NCBI GenBank assembly: GCA_029862005.1
Contig: JAOTYD010000008.1
Coordinates: 4,472 to 68,471 of the forward strand
DNA length: 64,000 bases
Source: Gammaproteobacteria bacterium
GTDB lineage: Bacteria; Pseudomonadota; Gammaproteobacteria; GCA-001735895
Direction: 5' to 3'
Shown in pieces: positions 4,619-61,685 of the stretch. The position numbers and the translations under genes are program-made. The notes under the pieces are model-generated. The model did not search any database, had not been told where the DNA came from, and saw nothing but the letters and a program-made list of their open reading frames with translations. Position 1 is the stretch's first letter. Every line of letters starts with the position of its first letter.

Positions 4619-6220
4619 CTATTTCGCAAAATACTCATCGAAACGTGCCTTTGCCTCGTTGCCAAATAGCTTTTCGCAGGCCTCGAACAGACCTGCCGAT
4701 TGTTGCAGTGTCGTACGCGACACCAGCAACTCGATCTTGGAGCGGCGCCTGAGATAATCTTCGAGTTTGACGATCATTTCATTGTGCGCCAGGTATTCTA
4801 TTTCGCAACGGCGGATGCCGGTGTTTTCAATCAACGGCTCTGTCAGGGTGGGGTTCCGCTCAATCGCGTTGAGCAGGGTCTCGGCCTGTGCGCCATAGCG
4901 GCGCCACAAGCGCCTGCTTAAGGGTTCACAGGTGTCGTTGGCGAAAAATTCATCGAGCCCCAGCTTGCTTGCACGTTTGAAATAAGCCTGTTGTGCCTGA
5001 TCATCGGGTTCCCCATACCATTTCTCGACATGATCCAGTTTCAGGCCGAGTTCGGCGACGCAAGCACAAATCTCGTTGCCGACATTCAGGCAGTCAGTCA
5101 ATTTGCCACCAAAAATACTGATGTGACTCTGACCGGCGGACATCTCAATCACGTGTTTGCGCGATAGTTGCTGGACGTCAATCGAATTATCGCCGAGCTT
5201 GCGTGTTGCCAATGGCCGTACGCCACAGCGCTCGGCAATAATATCCCCGGGTACTAGCGGTGTGGGTAGATCGAGTCGGGCATTTATGTTCGATAGCACG
5301 AAATCACGATCCTCATCGGTTACCGCGGGGACAGGATCGTCAACCTTCGTGTCGGTAGTACCGATGCAGGTCCGGTTTGCCATGGGTATTGCAAAGAACA
5401 GGCGTTCATCGTCGGCAAAAAATGCAAGCACGCGATGATTTTCCGAAATCTGCGGTACGATCAGATGGATGCCTTTCGATAAAACGTGTTGGTATTCAGT
5501 CTCGACGCCGGTGAGCGCATTATGGCTGTCGACGAAGGCACCCGCCGCATTGATCAGGATTCTGGAGCGAATTTCAAACGAGTTGCCGTTGATCTGGTCC
5601 TGTGCCTGCGTGATCCAGTGGCCATTCGCATCGCGGGTCGCTCCTTCAGATTTGACATAGTTGGCCGCAACACAGCCGTTGTCGAGTGCGCTGCGCACGA
5701 AGTTGAATACAAAGCGAGCGTCGTTATCATGCAGAAACGCATCTGAGTACTCGATTCCGGCGCTGCTTATGCCCGTGTTGATTAAGGGTTCGATCTGCTT
5801 TAAACGACGCGGTGAAACCAGCTTTGGTGTGCGAGTTTTACCCCGGCCCAGCAACCAGTAGAGCCAGGTACTTGCCAAGATAATCCAGGGGTGAAATCGA
5901 AAACGTTTGTTGACCGTCATCAGGAAGCGAATTTCCTTGACGGTAGAGGGAAAGCTGTCGAGCAACTCGTTGCGCGACTTGCACAGTCCCGCAACCAGGC
6001 CGAACTCATAGCCTTCCATGTACTTGATACCGCCCCAGACCAGGTTGGAGGATTGCTGGCTGGTGAAACCGGCAAAGTCTCCGGCATCGATCAGCGCGAC
6101 GCTTGCCCCACGTGCTGCCAGTGCCGCAGCCGTTACCGCACCGTTGATGCCACCACCCACAATCAGAACTTCAAAGGCTTCATTTTCGAGGCGCGCAATA
6201 TTGCCGTTACGCAGGTCCAT
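4619..6220 (-). CDS. glpD: FAD-dependent sn-glycerol-3-phosphate dehydrogenase
   Basis: FAD dinucleotide-binding motif VGGGINGAVTAAALAARG; the length fits GlpD and it sits in the glycerol locus. Confidence 0.9.
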   Translation of the reverse strand: MDLRNGNIARLENEAFEVLIVGGGINGAVTAAALAARGASVALIDAGDFAGFTSQQSSNLVWGGIKYMEGYEFGLVAGLCKSRNELLDSFPSTVKEIRFLMTVNKRFRFHPWIILASTWLYWLLGRGKTRTPKLVSPRRLKQIEPLINTGISSAGIEYSDAFLHDNDARFVFNFVRSALDNGCVAANYVKSEGATRDANGHWITQAQDQINGNSFEIRSRILINAAGAFVDSHNALTGVETEYQHVLSKGIHLIVPQISENHRVLAFFADDERLFFAIPMANRTCIGTTDTKVDDPVPAVTDEDRDFVLSNINARLDLPTPLVPGDIIAERCGVRPLATRKLGDNSIDVQQLSRKHVIEMSAGQSHISIFGGKLTDCLNVGNEICACVAELGLKLDHVEKWYGEPDDQAQQAYFKRASKLGLDEFFANDTCEPLSRRLWRRYGAQAETLLNAIERNPTLTEPLIENTGIRRCEIEYLAHNEMIVKLEDYLRRRSKIELLVSRTTLQQSAGLFEACEKLFGNEAKARFDEYFAK

Positions 6221-23040: not shown

Positions 23041-23935
23041 AAATGTTTTCCTCCCAACGCGCGGAATGAAACGCTTCAACGGAGGCGCTTGCCGCGTCGC
23101 CACCGCGTACTACCAGCAGTGCGCACAGGCTTTCGAGCAGTGCGATCACCGCTGAATTGGAATGAAAGAACTGCGGGGTATGGGTTGGGGAGACCAGTCC
23201 CAGGTCGGCCTCGCGGCACAGCGTTGCCGCGTTGCTGTCGGTTACGCCAATGACTTTTGCCCCTTTCCTTTTTGCCAGCTTTACCGCGGCCAGCGTATCG
23301 CGGCGATAAGGCTGGAATGTCATCGCCAGCAGGCAGTCGCGCTCGTCCATGCGAATCAGGTCGTCCGACGGCAGGCTGCCGTGACGTGGTGACAGGATAA
23401 AATGATCGAAGCCCATGCGCGCGACATACCAGAAGTTGTAGGCGAGCGGATAGGCGAGGCCGAGGCCGAGCACGTAAACCCGGCGCGCGTTGATCATCCA
23501 GTCGACCGCGCGCTCGAGATCCTGCACCGATTGCTGCTCGAACATCTTTTCGGTGTTGTCGAGACAGGCCTCGGCCATGCTGCCGAACACCGCGGTGCTG
23601 CCGCCCTCGCGATCCATCTGTTGCAGCCAGCGGACGCGGTCGGGTGACGAGCCGGTACCGCCGCGTACGAAATCACGGAAACGCTCGCGCATGGCTTCGT
23701 AGCCTTCAAATCCCAGGTGACGTGCCAGGCGTACGAAACTGTTCGGATGAACCTCTGCATTCGTCGCCAGCGTGCGCATCGATTGCAGCCCGACTTCATG
23801 TGGATGATCGATGATATAGCGCGCGCACAACTGTAGCTGACCGGGCAGGTTATCGAACTCGGCCAGCAAGCGCTTGAGCACTTCTTCCTGGGACTGCGGC
23901 AATCCAGCTTCGAGAATCTTAAATTTTTGCTGCAT
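23027..23935 (-). CDS. RpiR/MurR-family transcriptional regulator (HTH + SIS domain)
   Basis: HTH_6 region (VGLQSMRTLATNAEVHPNSFVRLARHLGF) and a C-terminal SIS domain. Start at MQQKFKIL. Confidence 0.8.
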   Translation of the reverse strand: MQQKFKILEAGLPQSQEEVLKRLLAEFDNLPGQLQLCARYIIDHPHEVGLQSMRTLATNAEVHPNSFVRLARHLGFEGYEAMRERFRDFVRGGTGSSPDRVRWLQQMDREGGSTAVFGSMAEACLDNTEKMFEQQSVQDLERAVDWMINARRVYVLGLGLAYPLAYNFWYVARMGFDHFILSPRHGSLPSDDLIRMDERDCLLAMTFQPYRRDTLAAVKLAKRKGAKVIGVTDSNAATLCREADLGLVSPTHTPQFFHSNSAVIALLESLCALLVVRGGDAASASVEAFHSARWEENIYDES

Positions 23936-23965
23936 TTGTGACAATTGTGCACTTGATTTAAATAA

Positions 23966-23981
23966 TGATACAAGTGTATCA
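23966..23981. promoter_or_regulatory. Palindrome TGATACA-AG-TGTATCA in the RpiR / DMGDH-like divergent intergenic region; candidate operator
   Basis: Perfect 7-bp arms read directly. An ACAATTGT palindrome is 25 bp away. Confidence 0.4.
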
Positions 23982-24025
23982 TCAGCGGATCTTTCGATGC
24001 AACCAAATTTTATCGGAGTCAGCTG

Positions 24026-26459
24026 GATGCAAAGCAAGGCGAATATCGTCATTATCGGCGGCGGCGTTATGGGCTGTTCGCTTGCCTATCACCTGTGCAA
24101 GGAAGGCGAGACCGATATTGTGCTGCTGGAAAAGGCGGAGTTGACCAGTGGCTCGACCTGGCATGCGGCTGGCCAGATTACGCACTCGGTCAGTCACTAC
24201 AGCCTCGCCAAGATGGCGGCTTATGGCACCGAGCTCTACCCGCGCCTCGAGGACGAGACCGGGCAATCCTGTACCTGGCACGGCAGCGGCAGCCTGCGTA
24301 TCGCCTATACCCAGGACGAAGTCGACTGGATCAAGTACACGCTATCGGTGGGCAAGGGCCTCGGTCACGAAATGGAAATCATCGGGCCTGAGCGTATCGC
24401 CGAGCTGCACCCTTTCTATAATCTCGACGGTGTAATGGCCGCGCTCTATACCCCGCACGATGGGCATGTCGACCCGGCCGGTGTTACCTTTGCGATGGCC
24501 AGGGGGGCACGCATGATGGGTGGTACCGTGATTCGTCAAAATCGGGTCACGGGCATCACACGCACCGGCGATACTTTCGTGGTACACACCGGGCAGGGTG
24601 ACATCGAGGCCGACCGGGTGGTCAACTCGGGCGGTACCTACGCGCGTCAGATCGGGGAGTGGGTGGGGCTGAATTTACCGATCGCAAACATGCTGCACCA
24701 CTACCTGATCACCGACACGGTGCCCGAATTCCAGGCTCTTGAAAAAGAGTTGCCGGTAATTCGGGACGACTCGCAGGTTTCGGGTTATATCCGCATGGAG
24801 CAGAAGTCGGGCCTGATCGGGATTTATGAAAAGGCAAACGCGGCCTCGGTCTGGGATGACGGCACGCCGTGGGAATCCGAGAACGAACTGTTCGAGCCCG
24901 ATTACGACCGCATCATGCCGTGGCTTGAAAACGCGCTCGAGCGCATGCCGGTTCTCGCCGACAAGGGCATCAAGAGCGTCGTGCATGGGGCCATTACCCA
25001 TCCGCCAGACGGCAACATGCTGCTGGGGCCGTCCGGGGTAAAGAATTTCTGGGTTTGCTGTGGTTCGCAGGTCGGCATTGCCTGGGGCCCGGGCGCGGGG
25101 AAGTACCTCGCGCAGTGGATGGTGCACGGTGCCGCGGACGTATCGATGCGCAGTTTCGACCCACGCCGCTTCGGTGCCCGCATCGATGATGAATACCGCG
25201 TCAACAAGGCGAAGGAGGATTACCTGCTGCGCCACGAAATCCCGTTTCCGCATCTGGACCGTCCAGACCTGCGGCCGTCACATTCCAGGCTTTCGCCTCT
25301 CTACGAGATCCTGAAAGACAAGGGAGCAGTTTATGAAGATGTGTATGGCTGGGAACGTCCCTACTGGTTCGCGGTCAATGGCGTCGAGCAAAAGCATATC
25401 GAGAGTTTTCGGCGCAGTGCGTTATTCGACATCATCGGCAACGAGGTACGCGGTATGCGCGCCCACGCCGGTATCGCGGATTTGACCGCGTTTGCCAAGG
25501 TCGAGATCAGTGGCGCCGATGCCGAGGCTTACCTCGACCGAATCCAGTCGAACAAGGTGCCGCAAAAAGAGGGCAGTGTCACGTTGACCTACCTGGTGAT
25601 GGGTAACGGGCGCATCGAGGGCGAGGCCACGATCGTCAAGCTTGGCGATAATCATTACTACATGGTTTACGCCGCGGTACGCGAAGCCGCGCTGTTGAAC
25701 TGGATGCAGGAGGAGGTTCGGGCGGACGAAACGGTCACCTTTAGCAATGTTTCAGAAAACTACGGTGTCATAATGCTGGCCGGTCCGGCGTCACGCAGAA
25801 TTCTCGGCGGATGTACCGACGTCGCCCTCGATAATACAAGTTTCCGCTGGTTATCGACGCAACTTATCACCGTGGCCGGAATAACCGACGTGCGCGCACT
25901 GCGCGTAACTTATACCGGTGAACTCGGTTGGGAACTGCACGTGCCGATGGCGGGTATGCTCGATGTCTACAGCGCGCTGGTTTCGACCTCGCACAGTGAG
26001 GGAATGGTACATATCGGTTCGGCCACGCTGAACGCGGTGCGCATGGAGAAGGCTTATCGTTCCGGGTCGGAAATCACCAATGAAGTCACCATCACCGAGG
26101 CTGACGTGGCGCGTTTCGCGCGGGATGGCGAATTCCAGGGTGCCGAGTATTCACTCAAGTCTGCCGAGCGCTGGGTACTCGCTTATCTCCAGCTCGATGA
26201 GCCCGCTGCGGACGCAGTGCAGTGCGATCCACTGGGTTCCGAGTCGGTATGGCACCGGGGAAAGCCGGTAGGGCAGATCTCGTCCGGTGGCTATGGATAC
26301 GACCAGGGCAAGTATCTTGCCTTTGCCTATATCAGGCCCGAACTGAACCAGGTGGGTAATGAATTCGAAGTGCTGGTCATGGGTGAATCACGCCGCGCCG
26401 TAATCGTCGAGCAATGCGTGTATGATCCACAGAACCTTCTGCCTCGTTCGGAAGAATAA
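24026..26459 (+). CDS. Dimethylglycine/sarcosine dehydrogenase-family FAD-dependent N-demethylase with a folate-binding aminomethyltransferase domain
   Basis: FAD motif IVIIGGGVMGCSLAYHL and C-terminal GcvT-like domain; 810 aa. ATG 9 nt after a GGAG. Confidence 0.85.
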
Positions 26460-26468
26460 TACCGATTG

Positions 26469-26590
26469 TCGTTCCGCGGCTTGACCGCGGGACCCAGTCA
26501 AACAACATCGCGTGTAGCGCGAACATTTAAAGTAAGCTCTGCGAGCGTGATGGTTACACTGGATCCCGCGGTCAGGCCGCGGGATGACTA
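26469..26590. repeat. Tandem GC hairpins, REP-like site F (CCGCGG-CTTGA-CCGCGG; ATCCCGCGG-TCAGG-CCGCGGGAT followed by GAC)
   Basis: Perfect 9-bp stem in the second hairpin, followed by the GATGAC tail shared with the other sites. Confidence 0.45.
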
Positions 26591-26634
26591 ATAAGTGGTT
26601 AAGCCGCAGGGCGACAAGTTACCGAGGAGATGAA

Positions 26635-27015
26635 ATGGACAAAGATTTATTTGAAAAAGGCCTGGCCAAGCGCAAAGGCACGTTGGGCGCGGAGTATGTT
26701 GAAAAGAACCTGGCCGCGGCCGATGATTTCACGCGCCCTTTCCAGGAGGCAATGACCGCATGGTGCTGGGGTTTCGGCTGGGGCGACGAGGTAATCGAAC
26801 CGAAGACGCGTTCGATGATGAACCTGGCGATGATCGGCGCGCTCGGCAAGATGCATGAATGGGAAATCCACTGCCGTGGTGCGCTCAATAACGGCGTCAG
26901 CAAGGAGGAGATTCGAGCCATTATTCACGTGGTTGGAATTTACTGCGGTGTGCCGCAGTCGCTGGAGTGTTTTCGCGTGGCGCGCAAGGTGCTGGAAGAG
27001 GCTGGCGAGCTATAA
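26635..27015 (+). CDS. Carboxymuconolactone decarboxylase (CMD/AhpD-like) family protein
   Basis: Family-typical size and blocks (TAWCWGFGWGDEV, HCRGALNNGVSKEEI). GAGGAG Shine-Dalgarno upstream of the start. Confidence 0.7.
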   Translation: MDKDLFEKGLAKRKGTLGAEYVEKNLAAADDFTRPFQEAMTAWCWGFGWGDEVIEPKTRSMMNLAMIGALGKMHEWEIHCRGALNNGVSKEEIRAIIHVVGIYCGVPQSLECFRVARKVLEEAGEL

Positions 27016-27222
27016 CAAGGCTTTGCACATCGTTCGAACCAACCAGTCTGACCCCAGTTCTTCTGCCATAAACATGTATGGTCTTGTTGTTCCAGCTAGA
27101 CACCTGGGCACTCTGGTATCATCTAGGGGACAGATATATTTGCGGACCCCGGATGATTTCCATCAATCGAACTTTACCAGCCAAAGAGAAACTAAGGTTA
27201 ATCGATAACTTGACCACGAACC

Positions 27223-29028
27223 ATGCCTGAGCTGATCTGCAGACCCCGGATTTTGTTGCTGCTGTTAATTATCGCGTTACCCCGGGTATCGATTGCAGCC
27301 GGTGAAGACCAGGGTCTCGTCCAGTGGCAGGACTGGAGCAAAGACCTGTTTGACCAGGCAAGGCAGCAGCAGCGCATGGTGATCATGGACCTGGAAGCGG
27401 TCTGGTGTCACTGGTGTCATGTCATGGAAGCCAAAACCTACAGCCACCCGGACGTGGCACAATTAATCAATACGCATTTTATCCCGGTGCGAGTGGACGC
27501 GGACGCCAATCCGGATATCGCCGCCCGCTATGGGCGCTGGGGATGGCCCGCAACAATCGTGTTTTCGCCTGAAGGCGACGAAATCGTCAAGCGACGAGGA
27601 TACATCCCGATCATCGGCATGTTATCGATGCTTGAAGCAATAATTGCCGATCCGAGTCCAGGGCCATCGGTATGGAACGAACCGAAGGCGACACCCGCCA
27701 GCCAGGCGGCGCTTGCTCCTGCACTGCGTACCAGGCTGGAACAGGCCTTCTTTGACCTGTATGACCCCCGCTACGGTGGCTGGGGTCGTATTCACCGGTT
27801 TGTCAATTCACCTGCAACCGAGTATGCGCTCGAACAGGCACGTCTCGGCAAGCGAGAATATGAATTGATGGCGCGGCTCACACTGCACAATGGCCTGCAG
27901 CTGATCGATCCAGAATGGGGTGGTGTTTACCAGTATTCGGACCAGTTCGACTGGCGCTCGCCGCATTTCGAGAAAATCATGTTTTTCCAGGCCGAGAACT
28001 TACGCCTGTATTCGTTGGCATACTCACGTTGGCGGGACGATACTTTTCTCGAAGCAGCGCACGACATTTTTCGTTACCTTGAATCCTTCATGCTCGACGC
28101 CGGCGGCGGGTTCTATACCAGCCAGGATGCCGATCTCAGCCTCGAGGTCGATGGCCACGCATTTTTCACGCTTAGCGACAAGGAGCGGCGCGCACTGGGG
28201 ATGCCGCGTATCGACAAAAATATCTACACGCGGGAAAATGCGTGGTTGATTCGGGCGCTGTTGGATTATTACAACGCCAGCGATAACCAGGCGGCATTTG
28301 AGCGCGCACGGGATGCAACCCGTTTTATCCTGGAGCATCGAAGTTTGCCAGGAGGTGGATTCAGTCATGGGAACAACGATGTCGGTGGCCCTTATCTTGG
28401 AGACAATCAGGCGATGCTGCAGGCTTTTATCGCACTCTATCAGAATAGCGGTGACAGACACTGGTTGCCGCAAATTGCGGCAAGCCTGGAATTCATTGAT
28501 GCCCAGTTTCGAAATCCCGAGGGCGGTTATAATAGTGCTGCGGTTGAGCCAGCCAGCGATGGCGTATTTGCCGAACCGTTTCTACAGGTAGATGAAAATG
28601 CGGCGCTTGCGCGTAGTGCAAATATCGCCTAGCATTATATAGGGACAGAGACTTCGAAAAAAATCAGCGAACATGCAATGCGTTTTCTCGCGGCACCGGA
28701 ACTGAGCGAGCAGTTCAGTTTTCAGCCATCCATATTGCTCGCCGACTACGAGCTCAACACGGCGCCAGTGCATATTGCGATTATCGGTGCCAAAAAGGAT
28801 ACTGCAGCCCGGGAATTGTTCAATGCCGCTCGAGATTATCCTGCGAGCTACATGCGTCTGGACTGGTGGGATCGAAGCGAAGGACCGTTATCGAATAACA
28901 GCATCGTATATCCCGAGCTGGATCGTGCCGCAGCCTTTGTCTGCTCGAATTACGCCTGTTCATTGCCACTGTTTGCCGCCGACGAGATTGCGCCGAAGGT
29001 TGCCGAGCTCTACGCTACCGAAGATTAG
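27223..29028 (+). pseudogene. Secreted thioredoxin-like DUF255/YyaL-family protein interrupted by a single in-frame TAG at 28630-28632
   Basis: N-part has the VWCHWCHVM thioredoxin-like motif. The C-part (28678-29028) is the family C-terminus (VCSNYACSLP). Both are in the same frame with only one stop. Confidence 0.6.
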
Positions 29029-29096
29029 AATTTTCGATCGAGCATCGCGGCAATATTCGATTTACTTGCCCTGGTCCGGGGGGTAAATTACTTTGC

Positions 29097-30215
29097 ATGA
29101 AGATTACCGGCATTAGCGTTTGGCAGCTCGACCTGCCTTTGCACAAGCCTTACTGGCTCTCCGGCGGCAGGCTCAAGTTCGAGCAACTCGATTCCACCAT
29201 TGTTCGCATCGATACCGACGCTAACGTATCGGGTTGGGGCGAGGGTTGTCCCTGGGGTGTGACTTACCTGCCGGCCTTCGGCAAGGGTATACGCGCCGGT
29301 ATCGAGGAACTCGCACCCCTGCTTATCGGCAAAGATCCGCGCCAGGCCGATTCGATCAACCGTGTCATGGACCTGGCGTTGCCGGGACATCCGTATGTCA
29401 AGTCGGCGCTCGACATTGCCTGCTGGGACATCGCCGCAAAAGCAGCCGGTTTGCCTCTATGCGAACTGCTAGGCGCGCGCGAACCCGATCCGGTGCCCAT
29501 CGCATCGAGCGTATCCACCGGCGGCCCGCAGGAAATGCTCGACGAGGTGCAGCGTTTCCGCGACCTGGGTTATCGCGTGCATTCCTGTAAGGTCGGCGCC
29601 GATGTACACCAGGATATCGAGCGCATCAATTTACTCGCCGCCAACGAACGTGCCGGTGAGATTATTTTTTACGACGTCAACCGCGCCTGGCTGCCGCGCG
29701 AGGCAATCACGGTAATGAACGCGGTTTCCGGGCTGACTTCGTGGTTTGAGCAACCCTGCGAAACGCTCGACGAGATCGCACAGGTGCGTCGGCATACCAC
29801 TTATCCAATCGGGGTCGACGAGGGCTTGCACGGCATCGATGACCTGATTCGTATTCAGCGCGACGGTATCGCCGAGGTCGTGAATATCAAGATTAACCGC
29901 GTCGGCGGTCTGACCAAGACGCGACGCCTGCGTGATTTCTGCCTGGCAACCGGTATCACGATGCTGATCATGGATACCGGCGGTACCGTCGTATCCGACA
30001 CCGCCGTCGCGCATTTTGCACAAACTATCCCCGCGGCATTCTGCCAGGGTGTCTGGTCCTGCCAGGAGATGGTCAGCGTCCATCCGGCACCCGGACAAGG
30101 CGTGCGTAACGTGGAAGGCTGCTTCAGCGCGCCCGACCTGCCGGGTCTCGGGGTTGAACCGGAGCTCTCGCTGCTCGGAGACCCGATTGCCATGTATGGT
30201 CGGGAATCTGGCTGA
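29097..30215 (+). CDS. Enolase-superfamily enzyme (mandelate racemase / muconate lactonizing enzyme family)
   Basis: MR/MLE N-terminal capping domain and barrel blocks (KSALDIACWD, VNIKINRVGG). Confidence 0.8.
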   Translation: MKITGISVWQLDLPLHKPYWLSGGRLKFEQLDSTIVRIDTDANVSGWGEGCPWGVTYLPAFGKGIRAGIEELAPLLIGKDPRQADSINRVMDLALPGHPYVKSALDIACWDIAAKAAGLPLCELLGAREPDPVPIASSVSTGGPQEMLDEVQRFRDLGYRVHSCKVGADVHQDIERINLLAANERAGEIIFYDVNRAWLPREAITVMNAVSGLTSWFEQPCETLDEIAQVRRHTTYPIGVDEGLHGIDDLIRIQRDGIAEVVNIKINRVGGLTKTRRLRDFCLATGITMLIMDTGGTVVSDTAVAHFAQTIPAAFCQGVWSCQEMVSVHPAPGQGVRNVEGCFSAPDLPGLGVEPELSLLGDPIAMYGRESG

Positions 30216-37854: not shown

Positions 37855-39312
37855 TTACAGAGCCGACTCGTTCACAGTTTGCCGTATCAGGGACCATAGC
37901 TTTTCAACATGCTCACGGGTGGTAGCTTCAACTCCGATCGAAACCCTTACCATCCAGCGATCGTCGAGCATCGATGGGCTCATAAAGGCTACCCCGGATT
38001 GATTGATGGCGTTAACCCAGGCGAGGGTATGGCGATCCAGCGCTTCACCTTCGATGCCGGGTGGTTCATGGCGAATGCAGACGGTTTGCAATTTGACCGG
38101 TGCCAGCACGTGCCAGTCTTCGGTGGCGGCAACCGTTTCGGCAAACCAGCGCGCGTTTTCGAGATCGCGTCGCAGGCGGGTGCGAATCGATTCGATACCA
38201 TCGATGCCGAGGTGATACCAGAGTTTGAGCGCGCGGAACCGACGCCCCAGCGGTATACCCCAGTCGCGGTATTGCCGGACTTCGTCATCGACGTTCGAAC
38301 GCAGGTAACTGGGATTGGTCGACATGACCCGCACCAGGTGCTGCACGTCACGCACGTACATCAGCGAGCAGTCGAGGATCGTTCCCATCCACTTATGAGG
38401 ATTCCAGGAGATGGAATCGGCTGCTTCTACACCCTCCCAGAGGTGACGGCATTCGGGTAACAGCATCGCACTGCCGGCCATGGCGGCGTCGACGTGTAAC
38501 CAGATATCGTATCCCGCCGTTATCTCGGCGATTTCGGCAACCGGGTCGAAAGCGGTGACACTGGTTGAGCCCACCGAAGCGACCACGGCCACCGGTAGGT
38601 ATCCGTTGGCGATGTCGGTTACAACTTGTTCCGCGAGACTCTCTGCTTGCATGGAGTGACTTTCGGGGTCCATTGCGACCATGCGCAGGTTGTCGCTACC
38701 GATTCCGGCCAGTAGCGCCGCCTTGACCACCGACGAGTGTGCCTCGGCAGTGGTATAGATCACAAGCGGTTTGTCAGCACCCTGCAGCCCTCCACGATTC
38801 TGCGCGTAGTTGCTGGCTCGTTCACGCGCCAGTAACAGTGAAGTCAGGCATGAAGTCGACGCGGTATCATGAATGCATCCCTCCCAGTTTTCGGAGAGCC
38901 CGGTGAGCTGGCGCATCCAGTCACAGACGACTTCCTCGACTTCGGTCAATGATGGGCAGCTTTCCCAGGAAATACCCAGCGCCCCAAGACCCGAACTCGC
39001 GATATCACCCAACACCGAGGCTAGTGCTGCGTTGGAGGGAAACCAGCCATAATGCATCGGGTGTTGTACCAGCGTGATTCCCGGCAATACACGCTGTTCC
39101 AGTTCACGCAGCAGTTGCTCGGGTGCCAACGGTGCTTCAGGTGCACTGGCGGGAAAGCTACGCCTGATGTTGCCGGGTTCAACCTGGGCTCGAACCGGCC
39201 GCTGCTCCAGGTTCGTACGGTAGTCGGCAATCCAGTCGATCAACTCGTGGCCGGCGTGGCGAAATTCTTCGGGTGTCATAAGTTTACTCGAATCGCTGTA
39301 GAAGGGTTTCAA
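37855..39312 (-). CDS. Group II PLP-dependent (aromatic) amino acid decarboxylase
   Basis: SWNPHKW PLP-lysine motif; 485 aa. Confidence 0.85.
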   Translation of the reverse strand: MKPFYSDSSKLMTPEEFRHAGHELIDWIADYRTNLEQRPVRAQVEPGNIRRSFPASAPEAPLAPEQLLRELEQRVLPGITLVQHPMHYGWFPSNAALASVLGDIASSGLGALGISWESCPSLTEVEEVVCDWMRQLTGLSENWEGCIHDTASTSCLTSLLLARERASNYAQNRGGLQGADKPLVIYTTAEAHSSVVKAALLAGIGSDNLRMVAMDPESHSMQAESLAEQVVTDIANGYLPVAVVASVGSTSVTAFDPVAEIAEITAGYDIWLHVDAAMAGSAMLLPECRHLWEGVEAADSISWNPHKWMGTILDCSLMYVRDVQHLVRVMSTNPSYLRSNVDDEVRQYRDWGIPLGRRFRALKLWYHLGIDGIESIRTRLRRDLENARWFAETVAATEDWHVLAPVKLQTVCIRHEPPGIEGEALDRHTLAWVNAINQSGVAFMSPSMLDDRWMVRVSIGVEATTREHVEKLWSLIRQTVNESAL

Positions 39313-39370
39313 ACTCCGGATTTTCAGGTATCGTTGGTTTTTGAGTCAATCAGTATTATTCAGCCAGACA

Positions 39371-40083
39371 TGAACCACGCTATCAGGGTTGCGATTCTGG
39401 ATGCGGTGCCCGAGAGTTTCTGGGCGGACGATCTTGGAATTACGGACGCGCAAAAATTCATAGATTTGTTGCAACCGTTGAACGCCTCCGCGCGTTTCGA
39501 GGTTTACTACACGTCGAAAAACCAGTTTCCCGATAGCATCGATGACTATGACGCAATCCTGGTGACTGGCAGTCCCTGCAGCGTCCACGATGATCATGAC
39601 TGGATTCGCGAATTGATTGATCTTACCCGGGTCGCGAACAGCAAGGGATTAAGGGTGATTGGATCCTGTTTCGGCCACCAGCTGGTGGCGCGGGCCTTTG
39701 GGGGTGAAGTAGGATTTAACGAGAATGGCTGGATGATTGGAAACTATTCTATGCGTATTACCAACCGTTATGACTGGATGCAGCCTGTTGCAAGCATCAC
39801 CGGCCTGTATCATTTTAACCAGGAACGCGTAACCCGTTTGCCGGAAGCGGCGGAGCCTTTTGCGCACACCGAGGAATATGTCGATTACGGCTTTACGCTG
39901 GGAGATAATATCATGTGTTTCCAGGGTCATCCCGAGCAACCCCTGCGCGCGATGGTAAATTTTCTGAAGGCAACCGATAGCCTTTCGCCCGATGAGCAAG
40001 CCAGGGCCACTCGCTATATTCATGACGGTGAGCCCGACTCGCACATCTGGGCGGAGTGGATGATGCGCTTTTTTATCGCCTGA
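39371..40083 (+). CDS. Class I glutamine amidotransferase-like protein (GATase1)
   Basis: GSCFGHQLVA Cys-His active-site block. Start at MNHAIRV, because the long upstream ORF overlaps the decarboxylase. Confidence 0.7.
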
Positions 40084-40112
40084 GTGCGATCGCTAACTAG
40101 CGGGAGATAACT

Positions 40113-60702: not shown

Positions 60703-60947
60703 CGCATTTTGGACTGACGTACCGAATCCAGTTCAACCACTGTAGAAATGGAGATTGCTGTTTCCTCGCCAGTTACCGGAAAATTCATGATCAGAAAAGG
60801 CCTGGTGCGTAAAATGGGGTTTGTCCTGCTGTGTTTGAAATCGAGCTGCAGTGTACCAATCCGCGTCGGGTTGCGTCGAATTTTCGTTGGGGTGGTCAGG
60901 TAAAACGGTTAAACTGCCAGCTCCAGCTTAATCAATACGAGGTAGTA

Positions 60948-61148
60948 ATGGACGAAGAAGCCCTGAACATGTCGATACGCAAATTTCTGAAGAAAGTCGG
61001 TATTACATCGCAGCGCGAAATCGAACGTGCAATAGATATCGCCAATACCGAGGGACGCCTAGACGGCAATCCGGTCAGGGTCAAGATCACGCTGGAATGC
61101 GATCTGATCGACGACGCCCTGTCGATCGAAGACGAAATCAAGTACTAG
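60948..61148 (+). CDS. Small hypothetical protein (66 aa)
   Basis: Internal ATG with a GGTAGTAATG context. The longer ORF from 60831 lacks a ribosome-binding site. Confidence 0.35.
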   Translation: MDEEALNMSIRKFLKKVGITSQREIERAIDIANTEGRLDGNPVRVKITLECDLIDDALSIEDEIKY

Positions 61149-61163
61149 CAGCGGGCGCGAACC

Positions 61164-61685
61164 ATGAGTCAGGATCGAGAATTCGTGCCCTTGAGGATAG
61201 CGGTATTGACCGTGTCTGACTCGCGCGACGAGGCAACCGACAAGTCGGGCGCCTTACTGGTTAAAATGCTTGGCGCATCGGGCCACCCGCTCGCCGAGAA
61301 AGCCATCGTTCCGGACAACAAGTATCGCATTCGTGAAGTGGTCTCGCGCTGGATTGCCGATGAATCGCTGCCGGTTGTTTTAACCACCGGGGGTACTGGT
61401 GTTACCGGCCGTGACGGTACCCCCGAAGCGGTCACGCCGTTGCTCGATAAGGTTATCGACGGTTTTGGTGAAACCTTTCGCAGCCTTTCCTACCAGACTA
61501 TCGGCACCTCGACCCTGCAATCGCGTGCGATAGCGGGCGTGGCCAACGGTACCTATATATTTTGCCTGCCGGGTTCTGCGGGAGCCTGCAAGGATGCCTG
61601 GACGCAGTTGATCAGTAGCCAGCTTGATTACCGAACTCGTCCCTGTAACCTGGTTGAGTTGATGCCGCGATTACGCGAAACCTAG
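61164..61685 (+). CDS. moaB: Molybdenum cofactor biosynthesis protein MoaB/MogA family
   Basis: LTTGGTGVTGRD motif. Confidence 0.8.
   Translation: MSQDREFVPLRIAVLTVSDSRDEATDKSGALLVKMLGASGHPLAEKAIVPDNKYRIREVVSRWIADESLPVVLTTGGTGVTGRDGTPEAVTPLLDKVIDGFGETFRSLSYQTIGTSTLQSRAIAGVANGTYIFCLPGSAGACKDAWTQLISSQLDYRTRPCNLVELMPRLRET

Follow-up and report, generated by a model that had tools for sequence, protein, structure and literature searches.

The stretch between positions 27223 and 29028 of the window (the whole 64-kb stretch of DNA analysed here) carries a 601-codon DUF255 gene that is, very probably, a nascent pseudogene, disrupted by a recent TGG to TAG nonsense mutation which is still segregating as a polymorphism. 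The event would be a single, very recent G-to-A transition at position 28631, turning codon 470 from TGG (Trp) into TAG; translation would then stop at this codon and give a product of 469 residues. The intact gene product is predicted to be a secreted or periplasmic protein of three domains: a thioredoxin-like DUF255 domain bearing the CHWC motif, then an (α/α)6 barrel and, at the C-terminus, an α/β domain. The sequence-only reading of this locus had named three possible causes of the interruption, namely a nonsense mutation, a sequencing error or readthrough. The first is borne out by a TGG allele on near-identical contigs; an error is unlikely, and readthrough is unsupported. The coordinates of the locus are collected in Table 1.

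Table 1. Features of the interrupted DUF255 gene and of the region directly upstream of it (window coordinates).
Feature	Position	Strand	Remarks
DAO + GCV_T fusion (similar to dimethylglycine/sarcosine dehydrogenase), then CMD-family gene	23874-27015		Directly upstream of the DUF255 gene
N-terminal ORF of the DUF255 gene, 469 codons, ATG start	27223-28632 (codons 27223..28629)	+	NCBI MDH3634534.1, 'DUF255 domain-containing protein'
Signal-peptide-like N-terminus, aa 1-26	27223..27300	+	Basic n-region, LLLLLIIAL, then SIA/AG; read by eye
CHWC redox motif (C62-H-W-C65) of the thioredoxin-like domain	27406..27417	+	Invariant in 117 homologs
Synonymous polymorphic site, codon Ala460	28602	+	GCG in the window, GCA in L005
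In-frame amber codon TAG, codon 470	28630-28632	+	Derived base A at 28631; ancestral codon TGG (Trp)
Codons stranded past the stop (131)	28633..29025	+	Last barrel helix and C-terminal α/β domain with invariant C574/C579
Second ORF, 116 aa	28678-29028	+	NCBI MDH3634535.1, 'hypothetical protein OES20_07505'
Natural stop of the full-length gene, also TAG	29026-29028	+	

The two open reading frames of the locus share one frame, and 15 stop-free codons lie between the TAG at 28630-28632 and the ATG at 28678. Joined, they make 601 codons with the amber codon counted, and contain the motif VWCHWCHVM as well as VCSNYACSLP near the C-terminus; this arrangement, first described in the sequence-only reading, was confirmed when coordinates and motifs were read again in the sequence. 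In Pfam, the joined product matches PF03190 (Thioredox_DsbH/DUF255) at residues 33-129 with 88.3 bits, the gathering cut-off of the family being 27 bits, and there are weaker matches to thioredoxin families. The 116-residue piece, compared alone with Pfam, matched no family. The N-terminal 469 codons encode the signal-peptide-like segment, the thioredoxin-like domain and the greater part of the (α/α)6 barrel.

A search of the joined sequence against 5.8 billion proteins returned thousands of matches, the best of which are 600-610 residues long with 95-100% query coverage. Homologs of about 600 residues match the joined product end to end (E = 0, up to 89% identity, 100% coverage), and the in-frame arrangement around the TAG is therefore not a matter of chance. 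The part past the stop aligns with the homologs without gaps, column by column, in an alignment of 26 sequences (A1), whose only short entries are the window's own 469-residue fragment (P0003) and two fragments that lack the N-terminus (P0012 and P0020), both of them covering the C-terminal part. A protein-based scan of representative genomes found 80 loci that match over most of the length of the protein, all of them uninterrupted and at most 51% identical; they include Proteobacteria, Acidobacteriota, Verrucomicrobiota, Planctomycetota and lineages related to Melainabacteria. No complete homolog examined (about 600 residues) stops at codon 470. The comparison with orthologs that had been proposed on first reading thus has a uniform outcome: all read through, and none ends at the TAG site. 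Judged by its sequence, 27223-29028 is one DUF255 (Thioredox_DsbH, YyaL-like) gene. The subfamily of about 600 residues with a signal peptide to which it belongs is very widespread, with more than 4800 hits in Proteobacteria, Acidobacteriota, Verrucomicrobiota, Planctomycetota and Melainabacteria-related MAGs, and carries an invariant C574-x4-C579 pair besides the CHWC motif.

Starting from the ATG at 28678, a 116-codon ORF is annotated by gene callers and by NCBI, as would be expected if polypeptides of 469 and 116 residues were translated separately and assembled into a functional split protein. Such an arrangement is extremely unlikely. The ATG is the Met codon of a conserved motif, EHAMR(Y/F)LAA, found in each of the 25 homologs that span this region in alignment A1; going by this conservation, it is not an evolved start codon. 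No Shine-Dalgarno-like match was found ahead of 28678, which is weak evidence, since the DUF255 gene itself also has none; in a crude survey of the window, 18 of 47 genes had a match. A scan of 26900-29300 for promoters and terminators gave no more matches than expected by chance, and nothing in it indicated a promoter for the second ORF. The smaller polypeptide would also lack the signal peptide that takes its partner out of the cytoplasm, residues 470-485, which form parts of two barrel helices in the structural model (see below), would be missing from the assembly, and no homolog is split in this way. The split-gene reading was rejected on two of these points, the conserved internal Met and the lack of an export signal on the 116-residue piece. 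The second ORF is best regarded as a remnant of the DUF255 gene, a by-product of gene calling and not a gene of its own.

An intact form of the gene is represented in the databases. The 90% cluster of the window fragment includes MDH3634534.1 (469 aa), MDH3634535.1 (116 aa) and an intact protein of 601 residues, MDH3857572.1 (P0122), which has W470 and is otherwise identical to the joined protein of the window. At the nucleotide level, contig L006 (ENA ERZ27296363) differs from the window, over 4935 nt compared, solely by G instead of A at 28631; contig L005 (JGI 3300022201, also in NCBI) differs, over 6852 nt compared, at the same base (G for A) and at the synonymous site 28602. The three domains that characterize the DUF255 family lie in one uninterrupted frame in the allele of L005 and L006, and are broken up by the stop in that of the window. 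The closest diverged orthologs, L003 and L004 (86-87% nucleotide identity), read GCC TGG CAT where the window reads GCC TAG CAT. The presence of TGG in L003 to L006, together with the single-base contrast to the intact allele, indicates that the ancestral codon was TGG and that the change was one G-to-A transition. Across the 117 homologs, residue 470 is mostly aromatic yet variable (Y 37, F 17, W 15, H 12, S 11, A 9, and others, N and Q among them), and is never a stop.

The TAG allele, for its part, was found on two further contigs, L001 (ENA ERZ27296365, 2364 nt) and L002 (JGI 3300022202, 1752 nt), both 100% identical to the window. Both alleles therefore occur on contigs that, apart from this site, are identical or differ by one more base and that come from different sample accessions, which is the signature of a segregating nonsense polymorphism. 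A pattern of 36 nt over the site, in the form of either allele, had zero matches in the metagenome and representative-genome collections.

A consensus error of sequencing or assembly would mean that the organism has TGG and that the A at 28631 arose as an artefact. A single base separates the two alleles, and the contigs of this locus in individual sample assemblies are short (1.7-7.6 kb), as would fit low coverage or mixtures of strains. An error is nevertheless unlikely. The A is present in three or more assemblies whose contigs bear different names (the 135-kb MAG contig of the window, a JGI contig and an ENA contig) and the G in two, although the accessions suggest neighbouring samples, possibly re-assemblies of the same reads, so that the TAG contigs may share one read set. 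The occurrence of the TAG allele on two further contigs from other assemblies makes an assembler artefact unlikely, and position 28631 lies outside any homopolymer or repeat. In addition, the polymorphic site 29 nt away creates three haplotypes within 30 nt, which points to real micro-diversity: at 28602 and 28631, respectively, the window, L001 and L002 have G and A, L006 has G and G, and L005 has A and G. These haplotypes suggest a standing micro-diversity of the population at the DUF255 locus. The outgroups disagree at 28602, where L003 has GCA and L004 has GCG.

The age of the mutation was approached through dN/dS, calculated by the Nei-Gojobori method. Comparison of the window with L003 gave 0.076 upstream of the stop and 0.096 downstream, while the values with L004 were 0.081 and 0.079. 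The similarity of dN/dS on both sides shows no decay downstream of the stop and fits a very young mutation; on these sequence comparisons, strong purifying selection had acted on the stranded C-terminal part just as on the remainder of the protein. Almost nothing else separates the two alleles, so that the change must be very recent.

A downstream part of 131 fully intact codons would also be seen if the amber codon were read through, by a suppressor tRNA or by leakiness of TAG followed by C; a useful full-length protein would then be made, and the allele would be tolerated or even regulated. The base right after the TAG of codon 470 is indeed a C, and TAG followed by C is a relatively weak termination context in E. 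coli, so that near-cognate readthrough might yield full-length protein in small quantity. The ancestral Trp, moreover, occupies a non-invariant position, where the protein would probably accept Gln, Tyr or Trp. Even so, readthrough is very unlikely as an explanation. An intact downstream part is equally expected from so young a mutation, the protein being otherwise identical to that of the intact allele. No homolog has TAG at this site, whereas in the 64-kb window TAG is the normal stop of 12 of the 54 long ORFs (the natural end of the DUF255 gene among them), and three of these ordinary stops also have C as the next base. Neither a tRNA gene nor a further gene split at TAG was found in the window.

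Only one other pair of ORFs in the window is separated by a TAG in the same frame (60813-61148 and 61149-61685), and these are two complete, unrelated genes: within 60813-61685, the TAG terminates a DUF6494 gene, and the start of a MoCF_biosynth (MoaB/MogA-like) gene follows six codons further on. Since each of them matches its Pfam profile end to end, they are separate genes and not a second amber interruption. Elsewhere in the window, at 37855-40092, the minus strand has three abutting stop-to-stop stretches in one frame, of 147, 100 and 496 codons, parted by TAA and TGA; an ORF of 343 codons on the plus strand (39052-40083) overlaps these open stretches, which may be a further interrupted gene or merely frames open by chance.

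A variant of the readthrough explanation holds that the amber allele is kept because of low-level readthrough of TAG-C or a suppressor tRNA, and would be a dose-reducing or on/off variant and not a dead gene. The chance of this is slimmer again; if it were true, the allele would still give some full-length periplasmic DUF255 protein. The preferred reading remains that of a nonsense polymorphism, and the consequences of the stop are considered below on that basis.

The hydrophobic segment at the N-terminus of the DUF255 protein is MPELICRPRILLLLLIIALPRVSIAAGED, with a putative cleavage pattern, seen by eye, of MPELICRPRILLLLLIIALPRVSIA/AG. A signal peptide had been regarded as unusual for the family, a view that does not stand for the subfamily to which the protein belongs: a comparable hydrophobic N-terminus is present in 107 of the 117 homologs, from which export would appear to be the rule among these proteins of about 600 residues. 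Only next to the cytoplasmic YyaL and SSP411 proteins could a signal peptide be called unusual. The Pfam family also takes its name from DsbH, a periplasmic reductase.

The structure of the intact allele (P0122) was modelled with AlphaFold2 using the 117 homologs, with a mean pLDDT of 93.6 and a pTM of 0.92. Residues 1 to ~27 have low pLDDT, as expected of a leader. The thioredoxin-like domain (residues ~35-142) is followed by the paired helices of the (α/α)6 barrel (residues 166-489) and by the C-terminal α/β domain (516-598), which is made up of three strands (516-521, 544-549 and 570-575) and two helices (527-537 and 586-598). In a Foldseek search the model matches PDB ID 7TKV over its full length (E = 2.6e-30, TM 0.72); this is the structure of Brucella abortus Bab1_2064, an uncharacterized protein with a Thioredox_DsbH domain. 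The barrel matches cellobiose and glucose 2-epimerases. A sequence search of the PDB agrees with these matches.

In the model, residue 470 lies inside helix 456-473 of the barrel. With the stop, the chain would break off before this helix is complete and would lack helix 476-489, the final one of the barrel, together with the whole C-terminal domain, including C574 and C579, which are invariant in the homologs. An incomplete barrel is unlikely to fold, and loss of function is the most probable outcome; going by the model, the truncated product of 469 residues is probably misfolded or inactive.

The DUF255 gene is followed downstream by the gene for an MR_MLE enolase-superfamily protein and by an FGase gene on the opposite strand. 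The same neighbours are found in L005, L006 and the diverged contig L087, and the upstream arrangement of DAO + GCV_T and CMD is found in L006 and L087. The neighbouring genes point to no function for the DUF255 protein. It is conceivable that the premature stop exerts a polar effect on the downstream MR_MLE gene.

Contig L087 (ENA ERZ23491227 scaffold_1554) also encodes an ortholog of the DUF255 protein, P0123 (437 aa, ~90% identical), whose frame leaves the family after FRNP (at about codon 432) and ends in SVSCM followed by a stop. The region concerned (5290-5436 of the contig) corresponds in position to the window from about 28515 onward, and the last ~120 nt of the contig are AT-rich and unrelated. 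Either the end of L087 is chimeric, or it marks the junction of an insertion or mobile element that has interrupted this gene in a sister lineage too.

As for the annotation, MDH3634534.1 and MDH3634535.1 are fragments of one gene and need to be marked as a pseudogene, or as a disrupted allele, of MDH3857572.1. The locus neatly illustrates a loss-of-function polymorphism of one base between near-identical metagenomic contigs, and suggests that an uncultured gammaproteobacterium can do, at least temporarily, without a widespread secreted DUF255 protein. The literature on DUF255, YyaL, SSP411 and SPATA20 yielded nothing on what the bacterial proteins do.

The protein shares with the known DUF255/Thioredox_DsbH proteins (of the YyaL and SSP411/SPATA20 type, and 7TKV) a thioredoxin-like domain with CHWCH, an epimerase-like (α/α)6 barrel and a small C-terminal domain. 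Its identity to 7TKV is only 20-21%. The subfamily differs from these known proteins in its length of about 600 residues and in its N-terminal signal-peptide-like segment, and the window allele in being truncated at codon 470.

Programmed amber recoding (pyrrolysine or TAG reassignment) resembles the present case in that an in-frame TAG lies within a conserved gene. This candidate was rejected on account of the absence of TAG at the site in homologs and its use as a normal stop in the window. The differences from recoding are that the TAG is unconserved here and is a frequent normal stop, that no other genes are interrupted and that nothing in the window hints at recoding machinery. With ordinary nonsense polymorphisms of bacteria, on the other hand, the locus shares a single transition, an ancestral allele on near-identical contigs, no decay of the sequence and a gene split by the gene callers. 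It has no distinctive difference from these, and is notable only in that the two alleles were caught on contigs as little as one base apart.
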